Shown here: positions 3,476 to 18,875 of the stretch, one piece after another
Layout: each line of letters begins with the position of its first letter
Position numbering within the stretch: position 1 is the stretch's first letter
Origin: an uncultured virus (IMG/VR IMGVR_UViG_3300010938_000019)
Lineage: Duplodnaviria; Heunggongvirae; Uroviricota; Caudoviricetes
DNA length: 20,000 bases
Reading direction: 5' to 3' (one strand)
Virus record (IMG/VR): IMGVR_UViG_3300010938_000019
The notes under the pieces: generated by a model
Database searches by the model: none
What the model was told of the DNA's origin: nothing
The model's input: only the letters and a program-made list of their open reading frames with translations
Program-made: the position numbers and the translations under genes

Positions 3476-6400
3476 TTAGCCGCCTAATTGTCTAGCCATT
3501 GCCTCTTGAGCTGTTTGAGGAACATCTTCAAATGGAGCCGGAGGAGTAGAAGGTTCAGGAACTGGAGGCAACTGATCCTGTATAGCTACTGACTGAGCTT
3601 GAGGATTATTCATAATATCTTGTGTATTTTGAGGAGCCTGCGCTTGAGTTGGAGGAAGTGGTTGCTGTTGTATCACTCCAAGTAGTCCTGGGTCTACAGT
3701 CTTAAGCATATCAATATGTTCTTGAATGTGCTTTAAAGTTCTTTGTAACAACTCAGGGTCTTTACGTAGAATTGGATCAGCAATTACACCTTTATGTTGA
3801 CGAATATGACTAGCATGATCGTCAGTAATAACGGCAATTACTTCATCGCCTTTAAGGAGTGCTTCATTCTCAGCTTTTATTGTATCTAGCTCATTTACTT
3901 CATCTTCCATGAAATAATCTAAGCTACCAGTATTAAGTACCATTAAGTACTTTTCTGGAGATTTAATTAATCCCATCTGCATTAGGTTTTCTGCAATCTG
4001 TGCTCTACCTGCAGTCGTATTATGGGTTACTGTAAAATCTTTTAATAAGAAATGAGGATCTTCTTTTAAACAAAATCCATAGTAGATTTCTTTATTAACT
4101 TTAGTTAGTTTAATTCCATAATTTAACCAATTTTTTTGTTTTTTACACTCTTTAGATTGTTTTCTTGGAAGTTTTGTAGGAATTCTCCATGTATCTCCTC
4201 CAATTGAAACAATGTTATATTCGTTTTCTTGTTTACTTTTTTCGGTCTGTCTTTTTAATTTTTTCCTAGATACTCTAAATCCTAAACTTCCTGCAATAAA
4301 GCATATATCGTCAGTAACTTTATTACATTTTTGAGTAAAAACAAACGTTTGGTCAACCAAGGTTCCGTCTATATCTAAAAACCCTGCTAGTATTTGAAGC
4401 CTTGTTAATTCATCGTTATACTTATAGTCAGCAGGAATGTGCTTATTTTTAATCAAATTGTACTGATTAAAATAATTCAGTACTTTGTTTCGAAGAACAC
4501 ATCCATGACTTTTTTGACTTGTTATTGTAAAAGTACTTGCTCTTCCTGAAGTATTAGATTTTCTTCTTATAAGAGCTAACCCATTATGATTAGCGTATTC
4601 TCTCCAATAATTTTCTATTTCTTTATCCATGGTGGTAATGCTAGGTTCACATCTATTACCATCTCCTAACCATGATCCTAATATGTAGGGGTCTAGAGTT
4701 ACGAACTTGTGATCAAAATTTATAGGTACTTTAAAACCCATTAAAATTCTTTGATGTCTTTCAGGAAGTTTTAAGTAATCTTTTACAGAAATGTCTATAA
4801 TTTGACCTTTTTTAACTCCATATCGAGAATCGGAAGAACAATATTTTAAAGTCATTATATGATTTTCGTTACATTTGTAAATAAAGTTTCCATTTCTATC
4901 ATGCACTTCATACATTTGTTGAAATCCTGTTCCAGCAACAGTAACGGTCTTGGGTTTAGAATCCCATCCCATTACTAAATTACCTTCGTATATATCTTCG
5001 ACTTTTTTAAATGTTCCGTCGTACATCATTACTTCTGTACCTTCCGCAAGACACGACATCAAAGCGTTACCTACGTCTACAACAACTCTAGATATGGAAC
5101 TAATATCATCACTCTTAAACTTTTCCATCTTAGTAGTTTGGCTTACTCCAGCAATAGCGATAATCCTAGGTACCTTAGCAAAGTCTTGTAATAGCTTAAC
5201 TAATCCTGTTCCAACGTCTTCTAATAACTGAATATACGATTGTTGTAAACCAGAGATGAATTGTAGAGCTTGAGATTGTACTAGAGCTAAAGCGTTTCCT
5301 GATCTTAAGGAAGCTTCTGGATTACCTCTTGCTACAGAGTTTACACCAGAAATAGTTTCCATTGTAGATTCTACTTTTTGTAAGAAATTAAATATTTCTC
5401 CTGGAGTAGCAGTAAGGTTTAATGGAGTTGGAGCACCTACTTGATTGTTATATTCAATAAAGTTAAGTCCACCTTGTAACTGAGTTACCTTTACGTCATT
5501 TCCTCTAGGATTCAAAATACTTTGAACACCAAACGCATTTTGGTTTGTCATAATAGTCGAGTAAAGACTATTAACAGTATCTTGTAAAGGAAGAAGATCA
5601 AACATCATAGAATATCCATAAGGAGTACCTAGGATGTCTGAAGGAGCAATGCGATAAATGGGAAGTTGACCATACGGCATGATAGTATCAATCAATACGC
5701 AGTCATCATGCAAGAATAGGCAGTAGTTACCCTCAGGCATTGATTCAGTTCTTTTATGGAAAAACTCATAAACCGCAACGTCTACCGTTTCATCATAAGG
5801 AGTTAACGTAGTTTTATAGCTACCTTGTTCTTTGTCCTTTGTAGGGACAGAAAGGATCTTATCTGCGAACTCAGGATACTTCTTAGCAAGATCAAACTTA
5901 TTTAAGAATGTTCTACAAAGAACCCAGTCATGTAGTTCTGGGTTTTCTTTAGTACTGTCGAATACTACGTCTAAAGGTGATAGTACGTTGAATTCAACAT
6001 CTCCTTCATGGATAGGAAACGCTTCTAGCTTATTTCCAGCTTCATCCAAAGGATTGCCTTCTTCATCATATCCGACAATAGAAGATGGATCTGGTTCGAC
6101 ATAGTCGTGAATTTCACCTCGTGTGGAATTCCACTCCATCTTCACATAGCCGGAACCTAGAACGATAGCGTATTCAACCGCTTTTTTTAAATATTTTTCT
6201 AGGCGTTTTTCTCTCATGTAGTAATCGAGAAGGTTATTTGCTAATTTAGTTTGAATTAAAGACTTACGATCTGTATTTACTGCACGAGCTTGGAATGCTG
6301 GTCTTGTTGATGTAACCATAACAAGCATGTGCTGAGCAATGTTCCTGTAATGGTTTACCGCTAGGTTTACTAGCTCACCTTGTTCTCCACCATATCCTAA

Positions 6401-6562
6401 AGAATGATCACTATTGTAATAATTACCATGATAGGCATTATATGAACGAGTCAATTTTTCTAAATAATTACTGCTATTTACACTTTTAAACCAAGCACCT
6501 GACTTGGACATTAAGTGTGCTACTTTTCTTTGGGATTCATCGGCTGCAAAATATATATCCAT
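3476..6562 (-). CDS. Portal protein with intein (1028-aa precursor, about 683 aa spliced)
   Basis: Directly follows terL; size, METISGVNSVARG motif and Q/P-rich tail fit P22/N4-like portals; GAGG RBS. Confidence 0.88.
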   Translation of the reverse strand: MDIYFAADESQRKVAHLMSKSGAWFKSVNSSNYLEKLTRSYNAYHGNYYNSDHSLGYGGEQGELVNLAVNHYRNIAQHMLVMVTSTRPAFQARAVNTDRKSLIQTKLANNLLDYYMREKRLEKYLKKAVEYAIVLGSGYVKMEWNSTRGEIHDYVEPDPSSIVGYDEEGNPLDEAGNKLEAFPIHEGDVEFNVLSPLDVVFDSTKENPELHDWVLCRTFLNKFDLAKKYPEFADKILSVPTKDKEQGSYKTTLTPYDETVDVAVYEFFHKRTESMPEGNYCLFLHDDCVLIDTIMPYGQLPIYRIAPSDILGTPYGYSMMFDLLPLQDTVNSLYSTIMTNQNAFGVQSILNPRGNDVKVTQLQGGLNFIEYNNQVGAPTPLNLTATPGEIFNFLQKVESTMETISGVNSVARGNPEASLRSGNALALVQSQALQFISGLQQSYIQLLEDVGTGLVKLLQDFAKVPRIIAIAGVSQTTKMEKFKSDDISSISRVVVDVGNALMSCLAEGTEVMMYDGTFKKVEDIYEGNLVMGWDSKPKTVTVAGTGFQQMYEVHDRNGNFIYKCNENHIMTLKYCSSDSRYGVKKGQIIDISVKDYLKLPERHQRILMGFKVPINFDHKFVTLDPYILGSWLGDGNRCEPSITTMDKEIENYWREYANHNGLALIRRKSNTSGRASTFTITSQKSHGCVLRNKVLNYFNQYNLIKNKHIPADYKYNDELTRLQILAGFLDIDGTLVDQTFVFTQKCNKVTDDICFIAGSLGFRVSRKKLKRQTEKSKQENEYNIVSIGGDTWRIPTKLPRKQSKECKKQKNWLNYGIKLTKVNKEIYYGFCLKEDPHFLLKDFTVTHNTTAGRAQIAENLMQMGLIKSPEKYLMVLNTGSLDYFMEDEVNELDTIKAENEALLKGDEVIAVITDDHASHIRQHKGVIADPILRKDPELLQRTLKHIQEHIDMLKTVDPGLLGVIQQQPLPPTQAQAPQNTQDIMNNPQAQSVAIQDQLPPVPEPSTPPAPFEDVPQTAQEAMARQLGG
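4019..5053 (-). mobile_element. Intein with LAGLIDADG endonuclease in portal (345 aa)
   Basis: N-junction ALMS|CLAEGTEVMMYDG; block B CNENHIM; LAGLIDADG blocks YILGSWLGDG and LAGFLDIDG; C-junction HFLLKDFTVTHN|T. Confidence 0.95.
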
Positions 6563-6580: not shown

Positions 6581-6592
6581 GTAGTTGTTAAA
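6581..6592 (-). promoter_or_regulatory. Putative late promoter motif TTTAACAACTAC upstream of portal
   Basis: Motif sits in the 40-nt gap between terL and portal, just ahead of the RBS. Confidence 0.7.
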
Positions 6593-6602
6593 TTAGAATG
6601 TA

Positions 6603-9143
6603 TTATTTTTTAATGTTTAAGACAGTCTTAACCCATTCCAAGGCACTATTTGAGTCCTCGTCTCTAGTAGGACTTCTAAATACATTCCGTCCTTTTAACT
6701 TTCCATATCCTTCTGGAAAAGGGTTTCTAGATTCCATTACATTTCGCACCAAATAAGAACAAGCTGGAAGCGCATCGCAGTGACCTCCACGAACTTCTCC
6801 ACTAGGTGAATCTTTTAAGTGCTTAAAATCGCTACGAGTTTTATTCCACTGGGCATTCTCTAAATGATATATAAGAGTCTTGCATCTTTCGTGTATTTCT
6901 ATCTTACCATTACTAATCCACATACGCAGATTGTTAATGGCAGCATCTCTATTATCTTTTTTTGTAGGAATAAACTGTATTTCATGTAATCGACTTAGAT
7001 CGTTAATAAGCTTTAGATCATTATCCATGATCCTTAAGTAAGGTTGGTTAACTTCTCCAGTTTGTTCATCAAGGAATCTTATAGACTCTATTTCTTTAAT
7101 ACGCTTTGCTAAATGTTGAGTGGTCATTTCAGGACCATTCATTACAAGCTCGTCAATAATCTTTAACTTAGCTTCTCTAAAGTCATAAACTGCAAACAAT
7201 GCCACAGTTAAGTCTTTAAACCCTACGTCCATTGAAACATAAGCATCATAGAATGAAGGCTTTTCTACCATAGGCTTTACAATATCAAACTTGTGTTCAT
7301 AAAATTCTGGAACTACAGTGGATTCAGAAGACTTTGGTATTTCTACAAGATACTCGCATTTGAATTTAGGATTTTCTACTCCACCAGGATAACGAGCAAT
7401 AACTTTCTGTATCTTTTCTGGAGTAAGCATTGGAGAATCATAGATAGTATACTTTACTATGTTACCATCTGCTTCAGCAGGTTGAACAAATGACTCATGG
7501 AACTCATGGTTAGGGTCTTTAAAGTTAGGAGTAGATGCTAATACTAGTTTACCGTTAGTAGTATCTGTAGTAGGAAGCATAATACTATTAACGACGTAGT
7601 CTAAATCATCGCAAAATCCTGCTTCATCTATGATACAAAGATTCGCGTACCCTCCGCGAAGATTTTCGGCATTACCAGAATCAGTTCCTGCTATTTGTAT
7701 CTCTGATCCATTCTTGAATCTAAAGACTTTTTCTTGAGCAAGCCACTCTGGACGTAATTCTTCTGGACAATCTGCAAGTATTTCTCTCATGATGGGACGA
7801 ATGATAGTACGAACCATTGTTTGCTGAGGACACGCATATTTTACAATGGCATTTGGTATCTTTACACAAGTTTCTGTAGCAAGAGTACAAAGAACGTACG
7901 AATTATGAGTGACTAATCCATTTCCTGTTAGAAATAAGTGATCAGGTGTATCTATTCCTATGTCGTAAGTTTTAGCTTTGTATTTTTTTCCTAATTTAAT
8001 TCCAACACTGTCAGGTCTAGTATTGTTTTCTAGACAATTTTCATATTCTTCTTTCCATTTTTTTCTAGGAACCACTAAATATTCATTTAATTCTTTTAAT
8101 GCTCTTTTTGCATAGATATTACAAGAAATTCTTACTGTATAACAAGGACCATTTACGTATTTTTCTCTATTATCTGCCGAATAGTTACACTCATATTGCC
8201 ATAAAAACTTGTAAAGATACTTTACTACTTTTATCATACTTAACGACTGACTATGAAACTCAATAAATAATCTATTTTTTTTAAATTGAATACTTCCGTC
8301 AGTATCTATTAGTCCTGCTAATAAATTTAATAACGATTCCCTATCCCAATTTTTTATAACATCTATATCAATTACTTTTTCGTGAGCGTATCTTCCTTTG
8401 ACCCAATCATTGTAATAATTACAGTGAACCTTATTTGGATATGTCTGTCCTTTTCTTACTTTATTTTCCGAATTAGAAATGACCCAAGTATAATTATTTT
8501 CGCTTTGTCTATAAACCATTTTAGCATTTAAAACTTTAGCCACTTTGTTAGGGATGATTTCATTTTCCGATGAAATATGAATATTATTTATTCCTTGTCT
8601 AGAGCAACCATCTCCAAGCAATGCACCTATGGCGTACGCATGCGATTCATTAACTAAACCTCCTGGAGCCTGTATAAATTCTCTAACTATTTTATCTCTT
8701 ATTGTTAATTCTTTTGTCGTTTTGTATCTATATACAAACTTTTCATTTTTATAACAAGTTTTTACTAACCATCTATGATCTTCAGTAGCTCTTTCTATTA
8801 CTATATTATTATGAGTTAATTCAACTACCTCTTTTTCACCTTGAACATGAACCTGCTCAACTTTAACTATAGTTGTAGAATTAGTTTCCGTAGAATAGGC
8901 ATAGACTTTGTCACCGACTTTTATGTCTTTAATTAAAACTAATCCAGATGGTGTAAGTATCTCTGTGTCTTCATGTAGACATTTTCCTATTCTTCGGGAA
9001 CATAGCACAGTAGAAATTGGTTTATCATTATCAATGACGTACTTATGAATATCCTTTTGGATACCTTTCAGTTTCCAAGAAAGCTCACCTAGTTCCCATA
9101 GCTTTTGTTTTGCTGAATTTACGTCAATAGGTTTCTTAGACAT
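6603..9143 (-). CDS. terL: Terminase large subunit with intein (846-aa precursor, about 486 aa spliced)
   Basis: Reconstituted Walker A SRRIGK|S, Walker B LCIIDEAG, coupling motif LASTP, RNase H-like nuclease YVSMDVG...HCDAL. Confidence 0.95.
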   Translation of the reverse strand: MSKKPIDVNSAKQKLWELGELSWKLKGIQKDIHKYVIDNDKPISTVLCSRRIGKCLHEDTEILTPSGLVLIKDIKVGDKVYAYSTETNSTTIVKVEQVHVQGEKEVVELTHNNIVIERATEDHRWLVKTCYKNEKFVYRYKTTKELTIRDKIVREFIQAPGGLVNESHAYAIGALLGDGCSRQGINNIHISSENEIIPNKVAKVLNAKMVYRQSENNYTWVISNSENKVRKGQTYPNKVHCNYYNDWVKGRYAHEKVIDIDVIKNWDRESLLNLLAGLIDTDGSIQFKKNRLFIEFHSQSLSMIKVVKYLYKFLWQYECNYSADNREKYVNGPCYTVRISCNIYAKRALKELNEYLVVPRKKWKEEYENCLENNTRPDSVGIKLGKKYKAKTYDIGIDTPDHLFLTGNGLVTHNSYVLCTLATETCVKIPNAIVKYACPQQTMVRTIIRPIMREILADCPEELRPEWLAQEKVFRFKNGSEIQIAGTDSGNAENLRGGYANLCIIDEAGFCDDLDYVVNSIMLPTTDTTNGKLVLASTPNFKDPNHEFHESFVQPAEADGNIVKYTIYDSPMLTPEKIQKVIARYPGGVENPKFKCEYLVEIPKSSESTVVPEFYEHKFDIVKPMVEKPSFYDAYVSMDVGFKDLTVALFAVYDFREAKLKIIDELVMNGPEMTTQHLAKRIKEIESIRFLDEQTGEVNQPYLRIMDNDLKLINDLSRLHEIQFIPTKKDNRDAAINNLRMWISNGKIEIHERCKTLIYHLENAQWNKTRSDFKHLKDSPSGEVRGGHCDALPACSYLVRNVMESRNPFPEGYGKLKGRNVFRSPTRDEDSNSALEWVKTVLNIKK
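7902..8981 (-). mobile_element. Intein with LAGLIDADG endonuclease in the terL P-loop (360 aa)
   Basis: GK|CLHEDTEILT; block B ATEDHRW; AIGALLGDG and LAGLIDTDG; YDIGID...HLFLTGNGLVTHN|S. Confidence 0.96.
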
Positions 9144-10007: not shown

Positions 10008-10178
10008 TTATTTCTTTTTTGAAATTCTTTCTTTTAATTTACCAAAAGCGTACTTACCTTTGTTTCCCTTAGTCATTTCTTTAGCTACGTCCTTGCTAAC
10101 TCCTGCTTTCTTTGCAAATTCAGGATTATTCTCTATAGCTTTAAAAAACTTAAAAGCGGCTTTACTCTTTACTGGCAT
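10008..10178 (-). CDS. Small basic protein (56 aa, not in ORF track)
   Basis: MPVKSKAAFKFFKAIENNPEFAKKAGVSKDVAKEMTKGNKGKYAFGKLKERISKKK; overlaps the HNH stop; resembles the MPxKS..NPEFAKK small phage proteins (from memory). Confidence 0.75.
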   Translation of the reverse strand: MPVKSKAAFKFFKAIENNPEFAKKAGVSKDVAKEMTKGNKGKYAFGKLKERISKKK

Positions 10179-10758
10179 TTCTTTTATCCATTTCTAAGTT
10201 TATTTTAATTATCTCGTAGCCCAATGATCTATTATTGTCAAATAAATGATGGTGATTTGGACATAAGGGTGAAGTATTCTTGTAACTTAAGACTCCACCT
10301 TTAGAAGCTGGAATTATATGTGCAACTTCTACAATCCTATCAAATCCGCATATACAACAATTTTTATAGTCATCACGTTTTAATAATTTATTTTTTATAG
10401 AACTATAAGATTTTCCACCGTCTGCGTATCTGCGAAACTTTATTTGGTTTAAATAACCTCCAACAGTGCCGGAAGGAATTCCCATCAATTCGGCTATTTC
10501 TCTATTAGTTTTCCCCCCAGTAGCATATTTATAACATAACTGTCTTTTAGATCTTCTTTCAGGATCTATTTTAATAAATTTTCTAGAACATTCGACAGAG
10601 CAACACTTGGCTTTTAAAACTCTGTGAGGAAATACCTTAAATTCTTTATTACAATATTTACAATTAACAGATATACGAGGTTTTTTATTATGAGGAATCA
10701 TTCCTTTTTTAAAAGAAGTAGAGTTATGTTTTGGATGTTTTTTTTCTACTTCAAACAT
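10162..10758 (-). CDS. Free-standing HNH endonuclease with NUMOD-like, Zn-finger and HTH modules
   Basis: CCICG...AHIIPASKGG...N..PLCPNHH (HNH); FKKGMIPHNK; CKYC...CSVEC; NREIAELMGIPSGTV. Likely start is ATG 10758, just after the upstream stop. Confidence 0.88.
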   Translation of the reverse strand: MFEVEKKHPKHNSTSFKKGMIPHNKKPRISVNCKYCNKEFKVFPHRVLKAKCCSVECSRKFIKIDPERRSKRQLCYKYATGGKTNREIAELMGIPSGTVGGYLNQIKFRRYADGGKSYSSIKNKLLKRDDYKNCCICGFDRIVEVAHIIPASKGGVLSYKNTSPLCPNHHHLFDNNRSLGYEIIKINLEMDKRNASKE

Positions 10759-10762
10759 ACTA

Positions 10763-11053
10763 TCAGTCTTCTCCTCTAGGTCTTGTAATTTTAGGACTAT
10801 TCTTAGACCAAAGAGCTTTACATGCCCAGTAACGAGCACTCATTTTATCCTTAGCTTGAGCACAATTGTGTCTAGCTTTAAAGTTCTTGCGAGCTTTATC
10901 TGAATAATTAGACTTCATGTTTGCATCACCAAAATGAACAAGTTTTTCTTGTCCATCTTGACAAGCCTTTACCATCTTCTTCTTTTCAGGTTTAGAAGAG
11001 GGTACGGGCTTATTGCATTTTAGTCTTTTTTTAATTTCTGACCAATCTGCCAT
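10763..11053 (-). CDS. Conserved small basic viral protein (VHFG...RKNFKARHNC...YW family)
   Basis: GAGG RBS; first gene after the late motif at 11165; motif pattern recalled from uncharacterised virus proteins. Confidence 0.75.
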   Translation of the reverse strand: MADWSEIKKRLKCNKPVPSSKPEKKKMVKACQDGQEKLVHFGDANMKSNYSDKARKNFKARHNCAQAKDKMSARYWACKALWSKNSPKITRPRGED

Positions 11054-11164
11054 ATAACCTCTGAAAAAAACTAAGTGTAGATACAGCGTCTTCCTAAATC
11101 CATAACACCACGGTTGGTAGTGAAGGTGTAGTTTATCTTAGTGCGGAATCATCATTCCACGTAA

Positions 11165-11176
11165 GTAGTTGTTAAA
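11165..11176 (-). promoter_or_regulatory. Putative late promoter motif heading the packaging operon
   Basis: TTTAACAACTAC followed by a hairpin-rich 110-nt leader. Confidence 0.7.
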
Positions 11177-11314
11177 TATACTAATGTAGGGTGATATATG
11201 GGAAAATCTCTATACTATACTAACTTTGCTATATACTTATTATCTAGTTTTTGAGTATAAAATCCCTTAAGAAAGTGTTTGTTTCGATTTAAACTCCCTC
11301 AATCCTTAGAGTTT

Positions 11315-11342
11315 AAAAACAAGCCAATTAACCTAGATTGGC
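11315..11342 (-). terminator. Putative intrinsic terminator
   Basis: GCCAAT/ATTGGC stem followed by TTGTTTTT on the minus strand. Confidence 0.5.
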
Positions 11343-11634
11343 ACCGTCTGTAATGTAGTCAATAAATAACTTGCGTCAACATGATATTATTTGGGATAAG
11401 GCTTGTGTCTATTTGTGAGATAGACCTGTCAACCTACACAGGAGATCGCCATCTCCCGAAGCATGGTGTTGCTTCTTGCCCTGAGTGTGCTAAGGGTTTC
11501 ACCTTAGTCTCTGCTCATATGGGAACCAGTTTACCTTTACGAAATCGTAACCCTCTTCTGATTAACCCAATCTACATTACAAAAGATATAGTTCGTCGGC
11601 TCTCTTTTCATGCCTATATAACTTATACCTTCAA
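11315..11634 (-). ncRNA. Candidate structured ncRNA A (about 320 nt)
   Basis: Consensus sigma70 promoter upstream; 10-bp closing stem (11349-11358 with 11572-11581) enclosing at least five hairpins; GNRA-type loops on the minus strand; terminator-like hairpin at the 3' end; no credible ORF. Confidence 0.6.
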
Positions 11635-11640
11635 TATTTG

Positions 11641-11670
11641 ATTATAAGGTAAAAATACCTTTGTTGTCAA
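11641..11670 (-). promoter_or_regulatory. Sigma70-type promoter TTGACA-N18-TATAAT
   Basis: Perfect -35 and -10 hexamers with an 18-nt spacer. Confidence 0.8.
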
Positions 11671-11737
11671 ATATTGCTATATCCTTTACTTTAATTCAAA
11701 CTCATGATACTCTAAAAATAATCACTGGGAGGTCAGG

Positions 11738-11995
11738 ATGTATTATCTCGTAGCCTATTTGATAATTTTTGGAATCATCACAACAGTCAACTACAACGTC
11801 TATCAGGGAGCTGTCCCTTTTCTTTCATGCATGGTGGCTGCCTTGTTCTTCCCCCTTCAAGTGGTAAATTACATAGTGACGTACATTTTAGGATTTTTTG
11901 GGGTATTATGGACCCTTAGAGTAGGTTTCTTAGTAAGCCCAGAACAGTTCAAAAACGCCACTTCTGACGATGACAATAGCAAAGACCCTAAATAA
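11738..11995 (+). CDS. Small membrane protein (85 aa)
   Basis: GGAGG RBS; 2-3 hydrophobic segments and a charged tail. Confidence 0.75.
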   Translation: MYYLVAYLIIFGIITTVNYNVYQGAVPFLSCMVAALFFPLQVVNYIVTYILGFFGVLWTLRVGFLVSPEQFKNATSDDDNSKDPK

Positions 11996-12025
11996 CAGGT
12001 GACAACTATCCCTTAGAAGGACCTA

Positions 12026-12346
12026 ATGGTGACACATAACATACCTTTAACTGAATTTATAGTGCAACTACTTAAAATCATTGAAGACAACTCCAAAGGA
12101 ATGTCTTATAGTGATCGCTATGCCTTAAAATCCCTAGTCCTTTCTTGTTATCAAACATATGCAATAACTGTTACAAAGGAAATCCCAATAGCCAATCCTA
12201 AGCTCCTATCCACTGAACTGCAAGACGACCTTAAATACCAACTAGGATCTCTTCTTGGCGAAGCCTTGACTGAGCAATGTGCTTCCTTTAACCTATCTAA
12301 ACATAAACTAACAACTACTGTTATAGCCTTAAAAATCAAGGCTTAG
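12026..12346 (+). CDS. Hypothetical protein (106 aa)
   Basis: AAGGA RBS; co-directional gene string. Confidence 0.7.
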   Translation: MVTHNIPLTEFIVQLLKIIEDNSKGMSYSDRYALKSLVLSCYQTYAITVTKEIPIANPKLLSTELQDDLKYQLGSLLGEALTEQCASFNLSKHKLTTTVIALKIKA

Positions 12347-12718: not shown

Positions 12719-12743
12719 CAAACTCAGTCACTTCCTTTATACT
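12715..12743 (+). promoter_or_regulatory. Sigma70-type promoter TTGACA-N17-TATACT
   Basis: Near-consensus hexamers with a 17-nt spacer. Confidence 0.75.
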
Positions 12744-12801
12744 TGAAGTTACAAGGACGTACTCTCCTCAAAACCTTAGTCCTTTGTAGGTTTCTCCTTT
12801 T

Positions 12802-12835
12802 GGACAGGAAGGTTTCCCAGACCTCCTGTCCTTTT
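12802..12835 (+). terminator. Intrinsic terminator
   Basis: GGACAGGA/TCCTGTCC stem followed by TTTT. Confidence 0.65.
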
Positions 12836-12904
12836 AAATAAACCCCCTTTTGCGAGCCGGATGCGAGCACTATGTGTCCGAAAGCTCGCGACCATGGAGA
12901 GTAA

Positions 12905-13210
12905 ATGAAACGTCGTAAAAGCCCCAAAAAAGCCCACTACATAGCCAAAGGCATTGGTCCTATAGACAATACCCCTAAAGGCTTCACCGAGCTTAGAGAA
13001 GCCATTCTAGTCAATCCTATGATGGTATATGAGCTTCTAGGATCTATCCCCCAACTGTCCATGCAATCAGGACTTCCCTTAAAGAAGTACTCCATCCATA
13101 CCAGCATTCACATGCCCATTACCAAAGCATACATCATCGACAGTAACCTTGTTAAACAAATCATAAACTTCTACGGATCTGCCGAAGAAATTGAACAAGA
13201 AGAAGATTAG
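12905..13210 (+). CDS. Hypothetical protein (101 aa)
   Basis: GGAG RBS; basic N-terminus, acidic C-terminus. Confidence 0.7.
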   Translation: MKRRKSPKKAHYIAKGIGPIDNTPKGFTELREAILVNPMMVYELLGSIPQLSMQSGLPLKKYSIHTSIHMPITKAYIIDSNLVKQIINFYGSAEEIEQEED

Positions 13211-13575
13211 TACCCTTTACACTTTCTTTACTTGAAACTGTATTATCAACCACTTACATTACGTTAACTGCCGAAAAGGTATAGATAAAAAGGCTATAGG
13301 TGTATTATCTTATACGTTGTATGGAATATTTTAGTAGTAAGTAATTTCCTGACAATTGAAGGTATCTCTCAAAGATAGTGCCAGAATCGACAAAACATGC
13401 CCTAGAATCGACGAGAAGGTATAGGGCTATGCAAGTACTAGGATAAGGGAAATGGAGTGCGAGAAATGGGATTATTAGAAGTTGAGTGTATTATATAAGT
13501 TGTAGAGATATCTGTGTTGTGAGGTATAAAAAATTTTTATCCCATCACGCGGGTCACGTGGGGGGGGGTCCCCCC

Positions 13576-14639: not shown

Positions 14640-14997
14640 GTTACCCGTAATACATCAAGAGAGTTACTGTATATTCACTTTCGGGTATAGTATAGCTATA
14701 TAGCAGATTTTAGCTATAGTTACTAGTACTATACCTTTCACCTAATGTGCCCGAACTTTCAGTGAAGGTCTATAGTCGAGATTCCTTAATCTCTGGACGA
14801 CTTCGGTACCTTAATCTTACCTAGTCATTAGTAGGGCGTTCCGCTTGAGTCTTATCCCTTATCCTCAAGTGCTCACGTGGGGGGTAGCATAGCCGATTCT
14901 AGCTTTTCAGTCTGATCACCCGGGAATGTTACTTCCCTTCAAGATGCTTACTAAGCGCAACTAAGGTTAATCGTTTTTTAACGGTCCCTACTTAGTA
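14640..14997 (-). ncRNA. Candidate structured ncRNA B (about 350 nt) behind the late motif
   Basis: GC-richer ORF-free stretch with nested stems and a possible pseudoknot, starting directly after TTTAACAACTA (14999-15009); 3' end uncertain. Confidence 0.55.
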
Positions 14998-14998
14998 T

Positions 14999-15009
14999 TA
15001 GTTGTTAAA
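14999..15009 (-). promoter_or_regulatory. Putative late promoter motif TTTAACAACTA
   Basis: Fourth copy of the motif; no protein gene lies downstream. Confidence 0.6.
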
Positions 15010-16483: not shown

Positions 16484-16979
16484 GGTATATACTAAAAGAC
16501 TTGAAGAAGGTAAACACTTAGTAAAAAACTATAGAGCGTCTAAGTTCTACTTAGGGAAGTACGCTTTAGAGATGATTGATCAGTTCCCCGGACTAACACT
16601 AAAGAGACTTTCCCAAGACCTTAAGTTACCTTATGGAACAATGAAACCAATAGTTGCATACTATAGGAAATCTAGAGAAACTTTTAGCGAAGATAAGCAA
16701 GAGCGGGGGTTCTTTCTTATACAAAAATTAGTTTGTGCGCATAAACTTAAAATTTCTGAACTGAATAGTTCGAATTTAGTTATGCTAGAAAAGAAGCTAG
16801 AAGATAATAACATTCCTAAAGGGTTTGCAGCTTTTGGTAAGTTTAAAAGCTATAGTAATCAGCTCATTTCCTTTTTAAGTAAGAATCCTTTGATTGTAGA
16901 TTCCGAGAAAAAGGAGATCTACGAGATATTAAGGAAGATGGAAATGGCTTTAGAAGGAAAGTTAAAGAAGATTGCCTAA
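16476..16979 (+). CDS. Hypothetical basic protein, possible HTH (167 aa)
   Basis: GAGG RBS, GTG start; TLKRLSQDLKLPYGTM is HTH-like. Confidence 0.7.
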   Translation: MNKVYTKRLEEGKHLVKNYRASKFYLGKYALEMIDQFPGLTLKRLSQDLKLPYGTMKPIVAYYRKSRETFSEDKQERGFFLIQKLVCAHKLKISELNSSNLVMLEKKLEDNNIPKGFAAFGKFKSYSNQLISFLSKNPLIVDSEKKEIYEILRKMEMALEGKLKKIA

Positions 16980-17427
16980 CAAAAGGATTCATATGGGTAA
17001 ATCCCAACAAAGAACACTAAGGCATAAAGAAGATAAGGGCGGAGAAATCAAGAGACTAAAGAACGCTATAAGAAGATTAGAAAGTGACAAAAGGAAGTTA
17101 CTATCTGAAATAAAAACACTTGAGGAAGCTTTTGGGAAGAACATTCAGTTTCTAAAAGGTAAGACCGATGGACTAACACTGAATGAACTAATAAAGGCAG
17201 CAAAGAACGAGCAGAGTCTAGAGCAAGTTAAGAATGAAAAAGAGCAGAAGTTTTCGGACATGGAAAAGAAATGGAAGTGTTTTGACTGCGAGAACGGGCT
17301 ACTAAAGATTATCAAGTATAATAATAGAGATGGTGAACATTATTTTAGATTGTGTTCTAATCATCCGAAGTGTAAGAAACGTACTAAACCTAAAAAATGG
17401 CACGATAACGTGGAAGGAATAAGATGA
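16972..17427 (+). CDS. Coiled-coil protein with C-terminal topoisomerase-type C4 Zn ribbon
   Basis: CFDC...F.LCSNHPKC resembles CPxC...FxGCSxYPxC; the start could be ATG 16993. Confidence 0.75.
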   Translation: MPNKRIHMGKSQQRTLRHKEDKGGEIKRLKNAIRRLESDKRKLLSEIKTLEEAFGKNIQFLKGKTDGLTLNELIKAAKNEQSLEQVKNEKEQKFSDMEKKWKCFDCENGLLKIIKYNNRDGEHYFRLCSNHPKCKKRTKPKKWHDNVEGIR

Positions 17428-17618
17428 AAGACATTTACGACAGAAAAGATCTTGAACTAATGGAATCAGTACTTGAAAATAAATTTCAAATACTAGAACA
17501 CATCGAGCAGTATTTGCTAAACGATACTTGGGTAGACGAGTTTAGAGTAAAAAATAATAAAGGACTAGAACAAGTCATTGTGGTTGACTTTGACGGCGAA
17601 ATAATCGCATCATTTTAA
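17424..17618 (+). CDS. Hypothetical protein (64 aa)
   Basis: ATGA overlap; AAGGA RBS. Confidence 0.7.
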   Translation: MKDIYDRKDLELMESVLENKFQILEHIEQYLLNDTWVDEFRVKNNKGLEQVIVVDFDGEIIASF

Positions 17619-17625
17619 GGGTTAT

Positions 17626-17775
17626 ATGCAAAAAATAGTATTGATTGGATGGGCATTTTTAATGGTAGGTTATGTGTTACTGTATATAGCGCAAGAACCT
17701 GAAATAGCGATATTCTTTTTTATAGTAAGTTTTGGTACATTCATTATTAAATTATTGAATTTAGGTATAGAATAA
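17626..17775 (+). CDS. Small two-TM protein (49 aa, not in ORF track)
   Basis: MQKIVLIGWAFLMVGYVLLYIAQEPEIAIFFFIVSFGTFIIKLLNLGIE fills the intergenic gap. Confidence 0.6.
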   Translation: MQKIVLIGWAFLMVGYVLLYIAQEPEIAIFFFIVSFGTFIIKLLNLGIE

Positions 17776-17783
17776 AATAGTTG

Positions 17784-17812
17784 TTTACATTGTGTTTGAA
17801 AAGTAGTATTAT
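17784..17812 (+). promoter_or_regulatory. Sigma70-type promoter TTTACA-N17-TATTAT
   Basis: One mismatch per hexamer; immediately upstream of an AAGGAG RBS. Confidence 0.55.
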
Positions 17813-17828
17813 TGTGTAAGGAGTTTAC

Positions 17829-18086
17829 ATGACGACATATTACAAAGCAAAATATACTTTCGAATGTGAAGATCTTCTTAACGACAATGATGAACACGTT
17901 CCAGAATATACAGCGTATTTTAACGGTGTAGAATACTTTAAAGAAGATGGAATCGAAGTTGAATTAGTAGAAATAGTTGATGAGAATGGACAAGCAGTAT
18001 CTACAAATAAATTTTCTAAAGAAACCGTAAGATATTTGTATGATAAAGCTTATTATTTAGACTTTAACAAAGTAGAATTGGAGTAG
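17829..18086 (+). CDS. Hypothetical acidic protein (85 aa)
   Basis: AAGGAG RBS. Confidence 0.75.
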   Translation: MTTYYKAKYTFECEDLLNDNDEHVPEYTAYFNGVEYFKEDGIEVELVEIVDENGQAVSTNKFSKETVRYLYDKAYYLDFNKVELE

Positions 18087-18088
18087 AT

Positions 18089-18217
18089 ATGTTGAAAATA
18101 TTTATGGTGTTTTGTATGATTCTTGGGGCAACTGCAATTGCTACAAGCTTAGGGGTTTACACTTACATGTTCTTTACAGAAATTGAACCAGCAATGGGGA
18201 GTAGTTATGAGGAATAA
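18089..18217 (+). CDS. Small single-TM protein (42 aa, not in ORF track)
   Basis: GGAG RBS; MLKIFMVFCMILGATAIATSLGVYTYMFF... Confidence 0.6.
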   Translation: MLKIFMVFCMILGATAIATSLGVYTYMFFTEIEPAMGSSYEE

Positions 18218-18875
18218 TACTATAATTGGATTAGTAGGAACCAAGGGATCGGGAAAGACAACGGCAGCAAGACATATCGTAGAGAAACTACGGGAATATA
18301 ATCCTAGTATCGTTTCTTTTGCTGATAAACTAAAGAGAACCTGTTCAGAAATAACTGGACAACCTTTAGAGAACTTTGAAGAACAAGATAAGAAAGAACA
18401 GGTATTTGAAAAGTCCGAGTTTCTTTATACTTCACAAATACTAAAGATACTAAAAAACTTTAATATTAATTCTGCTTGTACAGACATTCCGGAAAAGTTT
18501 TCGGGCATTATATACAATACCAATAGGCAGCTAATGCAGATTGTTGGTACTGATATGCTAAGATCTTACGACGATCTAATCCATGTAAAGACTTTAGCAG
18601 ACCATAAAGGATTATTGATTGTTCCAGACGTTAGATTCGCAAATGAGGCGGAATATATAATAGAGAACAAAGGATATCTTATCTATATTTCCAATACCGA
18701 AGCCGAGTCAAAAGTCAATGAAAATTCTCACCAATCAGAGAAAGAGGTAGTAGAAAAAACTAGACATTTGGCTAACTTTACGGTTCATAACGATGGAAAG
18801 AATTTAACAAAGTTTATTGAAAATGTTGATGACATTTTGTTTGATATAGAGTATTATATTAAAAATCATTCATAA
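18207..18875 (+). CDS. Deoxynucleoside monophosphate kinase (T4 gp1-like)
   Basis: IIGLVGTKGSGKTT P-loop, SFADKLK, RQLMQIVGTD, DVRFANE, HQSE; GGGGAG RBS before ATG 18207. Confidence 0.92.
   Translation: MRNNTIIGLVGTKGSGKTTAARHIVEKLREYNPSIVSFADKLKRTCSEITGQPLENFEEQDKKEQVFEKSEFLYTSQILKILKNFNINSACTDIPEKFSGIIYNTNRQLMQIVGTDMLRSYDDLIHVKTLADHKGLLIVPDVRFANEAEYIIENKGYLIYISNTEAESKVNENSHQSEKEVVEKTRHLANFTVHNDGKNLTKFIENVDDILFDIEYYIKNHS

Follow-up and report, generated by a model that had tools for sequence, protein, structure and literature searches.

At the exact divergent junction between the early and late genes of an uncultured freshwater phage lies a cassette that is real, cleanly bounded, conserved and non-coding. 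No catalogued RNA matches it, and we present it as a candidate orphan phage ncRNA. The reading we prefer, with a probability of roughly one half (0.5), is that the cassette is a self-contained accessory RNA "moron", driven by host polymerase, expressed early in infection and most likely acting in trans. Non-coding RNAs of phages are far less charted than phage proteins, and self-contained accessory cassettes that carry only an RNA have, to our knowledge, rarely been described in lytic-type phages. Clean bounds, absence from collinear kin phages and conservation above that of a neighbouring gene make this 435-bp unit a tractable case.

A candidate transcription unit between the early and late genes

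The carrier phage is represented by a virus record of 81,833 bp with terminal repeats and 35.8% G+C. We analysed a 20,000-nucleotide stretch of it (bases 55109-75108, hereafter the window), and coordinates refer to the window unless genome coordinates are stated. Early genes occupy the plus strand from 66846 through the record ends to 25339 (genome coordinates) and include ribonucleotide reductase, primase-helicase, family B polymerase, ERF, ThyX and dUTPase. The late block occupies the minus strand from 66161 to 25328 (genome coordinates), 41 kb that hold the packaging and structural genes. The cassette sits precisely where the rightward early block and the leftward late block diverge. Reading along the minus strand, its 3' side is followed by a 96-aa ORF, an HNH endonuclease, two small ORFs, the large terminase and the portal. 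The annotated parts of the carrier contain no integrase, and the layout is the early/late arrangement of a lytic-style phage.

The cassette begins with a sigma-70 type promoter, TTGACA-N18-TATAAT, that agrees with the consensus at all 12 of 12 positions, as an earlier note on this DNA had read it. Eleven sites in the 81,833-bp genome score at least 11/12, and this is the sole perfect one; the ten others reach 11/12. Around it stands a perfect 10-nt inverted repeat, a putative operator that is possible from its placement, with an outermost pair that is lost in two relatives, X1 and X6 (11676 G>A). At the other end, the terminal stem and U-tract of the earlier note proved to be an intrinsic terminator with a hairpin of -8.8 kcal/mol. 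Table 1 gives the coordinates of these features and of the aligned relatives.

Table 1. Features of the cassette and its surroundings, with the extents of aligned relatives (window coordinates unless stated otherwise)
Feature	Position	Strand	Remarks
First late ORF, 96 aa	10763..11053	-	phrog_7595 / part of phrog_220; head of packaging module
13-nt direct repeat, left copy	11226..11238		family D4
Conserved cassette tail past terminator	11239..11311	-	X6 alike down to 11239, unlike beyond
Intrinsic terminator	11312..11348	-	stem 11342-11323 (extended to 11348-11318), U-tract TTGTTTTT
Predicted RNA core, 233 nt	11349..11581	-	10-bp closing stem P1 around a multiloop
Predicted 5' end (~11634) and 5' hairpin	11582..11634	-	start placed from the -10 position
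Sigma-70 type promoter	11641..11670	-	12/12; -35 at 11670-11665, -10 at 11646-11641
10-nt perfect inverted repeat around promoter	arms 11632-11641, 11667-11676		pair I11
13-nt direct repeat, right copy	11674..11686		12/13 identical to left copy
Divergent 85-aa gene	11738..11995	+	small membrane-like protein; conservation yardstick
Copies of TTTAACAACTAC	11165-11176, 6581-6592, 2104-2115, 14998-15009; genome 54814, 38597, 32965	-	probable late promoter
Relative X1	11207-12165		42 differences, 38 listed
Relative X2	11281-11535		3 differences
Relative X3	11408-11569		0 differences
Relative X6	11239-11680 (442 nt)		26 differences, 7 listed; both flanks unlike the window

The predicted transcript is an ncRNA of about 310-320 nt that would comprise a 5' hairpin, a 233-nt stem-closed domain and the terminator. 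Its closing stem P1 (11581-11572 with 11358-11349, pair I9), which the earlier note had proposed, is 100% complementary and present in the minimum free energy (MFE) folds. Within it, the predicted multiloop holds hairpins at 11569-11520 and 11517-11482, a three-way-junction domain at 11481-11393 and a GCAA-capped hairpin at 11384-11359. The five hairpins that the earlier note had listed (11407-25, 11441-56, 11458-75, 11490-507 and 11537-50) reappear in both the MFE and the centroid fold, as does the GCAA hairpin. A second closure that had been proposed, TTGGG with CCCAA, did not hold up: the MFE fold instead uses UGGG 11569-66 with CCCA 11523-20 and GGG 11481-79 with CCC 11395-93, and a variant deduced at 11570 would break the U-A pair of that closure.

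The folding energy of the predicted RNA is modestly unusual and not exceptional for this genome. The core has an MFE of -65.0 kcal/mol and a z-score of -2.77 (233 nt, dinucleotide shuffles), and the fold of a 341-nt segment has a z-score of -2.53 against shuffles of the same kind. The opposite strand scores -1.95, and its fold is less stable than that of the minus strand (-79.5 vs -87.4 kcal/mol). When MFE was regressed on composition over 1088 genome windows of 233 nt, with the candidate window cut exactly at its closing stem, the core fell below the regression (-1.8 SD) and 49 of the 1088 windows scored better. With z-scores this modest and that many better windows, folding energy alone does not establish the structure; the promoter is clearly beyond chance, the fold modestly so.

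The neighbouring genes have features of their own. The first late gene is a mosaic: X1 and X6 share its first 46 codons only, with a break at 10916, and a further locus, L033, has only codons 53-95 in common with it. The HNH endonuclease ORF (10162-10839, minus strand) overlaps the 3' end of the 96-aa ORF and is absent from L033. Terminase (6603-9143, minus strand) and portal (3476-6562, minus strand) are each about 350 aa longer than their counterparts in kin phages, at 846 aa vs 485-502 aa and 1028 aa vs 657-698 aa. Since the terminase contains Hint and LAGLIDADG-like motifs and the extra part of the portal matches intein-bearing families, both appear to carry inteins. The gene for the family B DNA polymerase, which lies outside the window (L090:16620-20056, genome coordinates), seems to be split: after an ORF for the exonuclease half (16620-18320) comes a 254-aa ORF that is flanked by gaps of 521 and 450 nt without ORFs. 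The gaps may be introns; the only Rfam match there is a weak one to IS605-orfB-II (27 bits, E 0.059, 18550-18692).

On the early side of the junction, positions 12719-13485 form an ORF-poor region of raised G+C (0.41-0.45) that holds the minimum of the cumulative GC skew (13272); in four small plus-strand ORFs on its left the skew has the "wrong" sign. The region may be a replication origin or may hold further non-coding elements. As its minimum lies 1.6 kb from the cassette, it argues against an origin at the cassette itself, and a replication-origin transcript was dropped as an explanation.

The cassette occupies a variable slot upstream of a separate, probable late promoter

The late genes appear to have promoters of their own. 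The 12-nt motif TTTAACAACTAC occurs in the genome as four exact and three one-mismatch copies, every one of them intergenic and on the minus strand, and no copy with at most one mismatch was found on the plus strand of the genome. Six of the copies precede late ORFs at distances of 30-292 nt (30 nt in the case of the portal gene), and the first copy stands between the terminator of the cassette and the 96-aa late ORF. This distribution is most simply explained if the motif is probably a phage-specific late promoter. Its ACTATAG tail resembles what we take to be promoters of single-subunit polymerases; a search of the genome for PF00940 single-subunit RNA polymerase gave no match, and control genomes gave none either.

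Kin phages use the same arrangement without the cassette. We collected 15 kin loci (L097-L111, of which L101 and L102 are near-duplicates) through the C-terminal extein of the terminase, at 49-73% identity. They carry the core of the motif, typically as TTAACAACTATAG, with 43 of 45 copies on the late-gene strand and mostly 25-45 nt before start codons. The distance from the first late promoter to the divergent gene is 561 nt here and 199, 1, 27 and 44 nt in L104, L102, L105 and L100, short gaps that could hardly, if at all, accommodate the cassette and that contain no such RNA. The junction shared by L097 and L033 holds 344 nt of unrelated, unstructured filler (z +0.45), which marks it as a variable slot. 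The earlier note had expected homologues of the RNA upstream of related packaging operons; these relatives lack it. Kin gaps of 1-199 nt without the RNA imply that the unit was inserted into a variable slot and that late expression is independent of it. Together with the probable late promoter downstream of the terminator, they point to an accessory cassette that would be transcribed independently, not to a leader of the late operon.

A leader is nevertheless the alternative with most weight, as a possible but improbable reading. Bacteriophage lambda provides the model: a strong host-type promoter, pR', points toward the late genes, and the short, abundant 6S RNA ends at the intrinsic terminator tR'. 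The cassette likewise heads a late operon of 41 kb in the same orientation with a promoter and a terminator. If it were a cis-acting leader of this type or a terminating riboswitch, host polymerase would start at the strong promoter, the folded domain would decide whether the terminator forms, and read-through would feed the packaging and structural genes. The geometry suits such a switch, in that a stem-closed domain is followed directly by a terminator, the 3' strand of P1 ending 1 nt before the terminator stem (11349 vs 11348). In addition, 11567-11579 can pair alternatively, over 11 of 13 positions (I2), with the 5' arm and loop of the terminator (11329-11341), and the terminator itself is of moderate strength. 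These two features, the abutting P1 and the alternative pairing I2, are why a cis-acting attenuator keeps some weight. Short terminated 5'-UTR RNAs are, moreover, common in virulent phages according to the available part of PMC10914365.

The remaining evidence points away from a leader. Unlike lambda, the carrier has a phage-type late promoter downstream of the terminator, ahead of the first late ORF, and the same operon runs without such a leader in the four kin phages with short gaps, so read-through is not needed for late expression. General Pfam and PHROG scans of the early ORFs named no Q-like antiterminator. The terminator lies 270 nt from the ORF. Forcing the 13-nt anti-terminator pairing costs 8.6 kcal/mol (-78.8 vs -87.4), and complementary segments of 12-13 nt are common locally, with 13 inverted pairs in 1.2 kb. 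Finally, whereas a riboswitch core would be conserved across lineages, this core is not, and no homologue was found in the 80 and 15 related loci.

The predicted transcript is conserved above its surroundings

Assemblies of public metagenome runs contain near-identical relatives, with 16 such runs listed from 11 studies. The relatives aligned here come from four runs in four studies, and all available ones are 94-100% identical to the window (Table 1); a sixth variant is known solely as a translated antisense ORF, P0001. X1 spans the promoter, the transcript and the divergent gene. Counting the 38 of its 42 differences that are listed, X1 has 5 changes in the 312 nt of the transcript (11323-11634, 1.6%), 14 changes and a 9-nt insertion in the 103-nt spacer (11635-11737, 13.6%) and 12 changes in the 258 nt of the 85-aa gene (4.7%). 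On those same 38 of 42 differences, the transcript differs from the spacer at Fisher P = 6e-6, from the 85-aa gene at P = 0.046 and from all the remaining X1 contig (37 changes in 647 nt) at P = 0.002. Most likely the four unlisted differences sit close to the ends of the contig, though some may lie in the RNA or the hexamers. The yardstick is itself a real gene, since its X1 changes are mostly synonymous (9 of 12) and on third codon positions (8 of 12, P = 0.019). Among the listed 38 of 42 differences, the promoter hexamers are free of change while 4 of the 18 spacer bases between them differ (11648, 11650, 11655 and 11664), and two changes fall between 11239 and 11322. These comparisons support stronger conservation of the predicted RNA than of its flanks in the relatives, a pattern that could also stem from recent transfer of the cassette rather than from selection.

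The known variants are compatible with the predicted fold. Six positions vary (11306, 11330, 11366, 11561, 11582 and 11608), of which 11330 falls in the terminator loop; the I64L change of P0001 points to a seventh, 11570. Predicted pairs contain two of the six, each a change of U-G to C-G; the other four are unpaired in the MFE fold, and no pair is broken. With a chance probability of about 0.14 for breaking no helix (a rough estimate), this agreement is no proof of the fold.

The cassette is also sharply delimited. X6 resembles the window from 11239 to 11680, and copies of a 13-nt direct repeat bracket this shared block; genome-wide, no other intergenic copy of the repeat occurs at up to one mismatch. 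Short repeats like these often arise by chance; that they fall at both block ends hints at modular exchange and no more.

An alternative is that what is conserved is DNA. We consider it doubtful that the entity is a DNA module (an insulator, an operator-bearing decoy promoter or a recombination cassette) or a neutral insert, recently transferred, in which the hairpins are incidental. The direct repeats at both ends of the X6-shared block, the perfect 10-nt inverted repeat around the promoter, the unrelated filler at the L033/L097 junction and a fold energy unexceptional for the genome would all suit it. But constraint is even over the 312 bases of the predicted transcript and, at 1.6% change in X1 (38 of 42 differences listed), tighter than in the coding gene next to it. 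Pairing survives both changes that fall in predicted pairs, the fold of the minus strand is more stable than that of the plus strand, the direct repeat lacks further intergenic copies, and the GC-skew minimum lies too far off, at 1.6 kb, to favour an origin here. An RNA cassette remains our preferred reading.

The unit has little coding capacity

The longest minus-strand frame in the RNA region measures 34 codons from stop to stop, in line with the earlier note, which saw no credible ORF downstream of the promoter, and the unit is supported as non-coding on the promoter strand by this reading of its frames. It is quite unlikely that a 24-codon frame (11611-11537, minus strand) is a tiny protein gene with the rest of the transcript as its 3' UTR. 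Its ATG lies 23 nt past the predicted transcript start, and three of its four variants fall on third codon positions, two of the four being synonymous and two conservative (K2Q, D14E). However, at least three of four third-position variants would arise with P of about 0.11, and four variants carry no statistical weight; both synonymous changes are also the two that convert U-G pairs of predicted helices to C-G. Purine-rich sequence is limited to AGG, 1 nt away from the start codon, against a spacing of 5-8 nt in late genes, and about 230 nt of equally conserved sequence follow the stop codon. It is hardly credible that the plus-strand 86-aa ORF (11381-11641) is the real gene and the minus-strand signals a coincidence: the ORF is the longest frame in the gap, and a gene caller recorded the same ORF on another contig (P0001), but it has no PHROG match, its sole relative among 5.8 billion proteins is 98% identical, its four known variants are all non-synonymous, its ATG has no Shine-Dalgarno sequence and no plus-strand promoter points into it.

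The RNA matches no catalogued family

Database searches agreed with the earlier note that the RNA is possibly undescribed and unlike tRNA, tmRNA, RNase P and SRP RNA. At gathering thresholds, Rfam 15, whose models also cover group II introns and riboswitches, gave no match in the window, the rest of the genome or the 15 kin loci. Relaxing the search to E <=10 over 10900-12000 returned six weak matches, all to eukaryotic or viral models, far below threshold and outside the predicted RNA (11312-11634). ARAGORN detected no tRNA or tmRNA. The earlier note's overall reading of a structured ncRNA held for its own promoter and terminator, for the lack of coding capacity and for conservation; the part that weakened is the structure, given an energy that is not exceptional for the genome.

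Sequence and model searches of other collections likewise gave no homologue. In a collection of phage GenBank sequences, blastn in its distant mode found no homologue of the RNA. Among 80 viral loci that encode a relative of the 96-aa protein, blastn with word size 7 and nhmmer gave nothing above chance, and the whole records of five of these loci gave only chance matches of 15-18 nt. Exact patterns from the RNA core had no match in viral contigs (three patterns) or genome contigs (two patterns). One core pattern had eight matches in metagenome contigs, all by chance: they are alike over 20-24 nt only, in an unrelated and partly eukaryote-like coding context. A single-sequence covariance model of the 233-nt core (R1) recovered only itself in 85 sources (508 kb) and no RNA homologue in the 15 kin loci (149 kb), and the genome holds no paralogue of the RNA.

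Several specific identities were considered and rejected. A group I intron has no Rfam match here, and with the 96-aa ORF intact and no interrupted ORF on either side of the RNA it was set aside. RNase P, 6S RNA, pRNA, T-box, HEARO/omega RNA, a CRISPR-repeat mimic and type III antitoxin repeats were dropped as well, as Rfam gave no signal and neither repeats nor, in the annotated parts, partner genes were found.

The candidate nevertheless resembles known phage RNAs in part. The phi29 pRNA is an early, structured phage RNA made by host polymerase, encoded beside packaging functions and closed by pairing of its 5' and 3' ends. The cassette RNA too lies next to packaging genes, has ends predicted to pair and would be transcribed early by host polymerase. 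Unlike the pRNA, it has no RF00044 match at E <=10, and its carrier has a classical large terminase and portal. By eye, its loops offer no mutually complementary pair; the longest match, of 4 nt, joins CACC to a GGUG that is not in a loop. ROOL and GOLLD (Rfam) are large multi-hairpin orphan RNAs of phages and prophages; the candidate is likewise phage-borne and, by prediction, multi-hairpin, but about half their size, confined to one narrow lineage and without an Rfam match.

Among terminated phage RNAs, the closest are those of virulent Pseudomonas phages. The available part of Putzeys et al. 2024 (PMC10914365) reports 29 candidate ncRNAs, short and terminated in 5' UTRs, in six phages. In that part of the source, such terminated structured RNAs are genus-restricted, common and mostly unexplained. 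As described there, they resemble the cassette RNA in being short structured RNAs that begin at a start site, end at a terminator and precede phage genes, head genes among them, but they are the 5' UTRs of the genes they precede, whereas a promoter separates the cassette RNA from its downstream gene. At about 310 nt, the cassette RNA is also longer than those examples for which that part of the source gives sizes.

The organisation of the unit is best compared to a moron. Morons are autonomous inserts of promoter, gene and terminator (Juhala et al. 2000, as described in the available part of PMC10914365). The cassette likewise has its own sigma-70 promoter and factor-independent terminator, is accessory, and sits between genes that are adjacent in related phages (561 nt here vs 1-199). 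It differs in its cargo, an ncRNA where a moron carries a protein gene, and in its carrier, which is lytic-style whereas morons are mostly described in temperate phages.

How the RNA might act

In the mechanism we propose, the strongest bacterial-type promoter of the genome would recruit the sigma-70 RNA polymerase of the host, transcription would begin at about 11634, and the resulting RNA would act in trans early in infection, as a regulator or as a sponge or decoy for a host factor. A second role of the terminator would be to stop host polymerase from entering the late genes, leaving these to be driven by their own phage-type promoters. That the RNA acts in trans on a host or phage factor is the most likely mode and, for now, a guess; we favour it because the unit is dispensable in kin operons and its sequence is strongly constrained throughout. 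One possible antisense contact was rejected: the internal loop 11550-11559 is complementary to the mRNA of the 96-aa protein over 10 nt (pair I4), and chance alone would yield roughly twelve matches of this kind in 41 kb.

A more pointed and rather improbable version sees the RNA as a weapon in the slot transcribed first. It might disarm a host defence or sequester a host factor, with a polymerase, a nuclease or an RNA chaperone as its target. The exchangeable, repeat-flanked module would then be an RNA counterpart of anti-defence proteins such as T7 Ocr. If the RNA does serve anti-defence or host takeover, it adds a class of RNA to the accessory slots that are hunted for such functions. Should the cassette be no more than a portable promoter/terminator module, it still records how the junction of early and late genes is reshuffled in this lineage.

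A second RNA candidate in the window

A second structured RNA candidate lies at about 14700-15009 (minus strand) and is better supported than the first. It follows a late-type promoter at the far end of a block of small early genes, antisense to that block, and comprises 280-400 ORF-free bases with conserved blocks. Its counterparts in kin phages are at L104:262-549, L102/L101:1457-1733, L105:1055-1335 and L097:1122-1428. Rfam has no match for it, and a covariance model of it (R2) found L097 weakly (20 bits) and matched neither the window nor the target cassette. Across three kin sequences, 14 of its 62 predicted pairs keep pairing through two-sided changes.

Another of the late-promoter copies, that at 2104-2115, stands 292 nt before the next ORF and leads directly into a long perfect hairpin, TAGTAGAGAGA ... 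TCTCTCTACTA (2075-2115).
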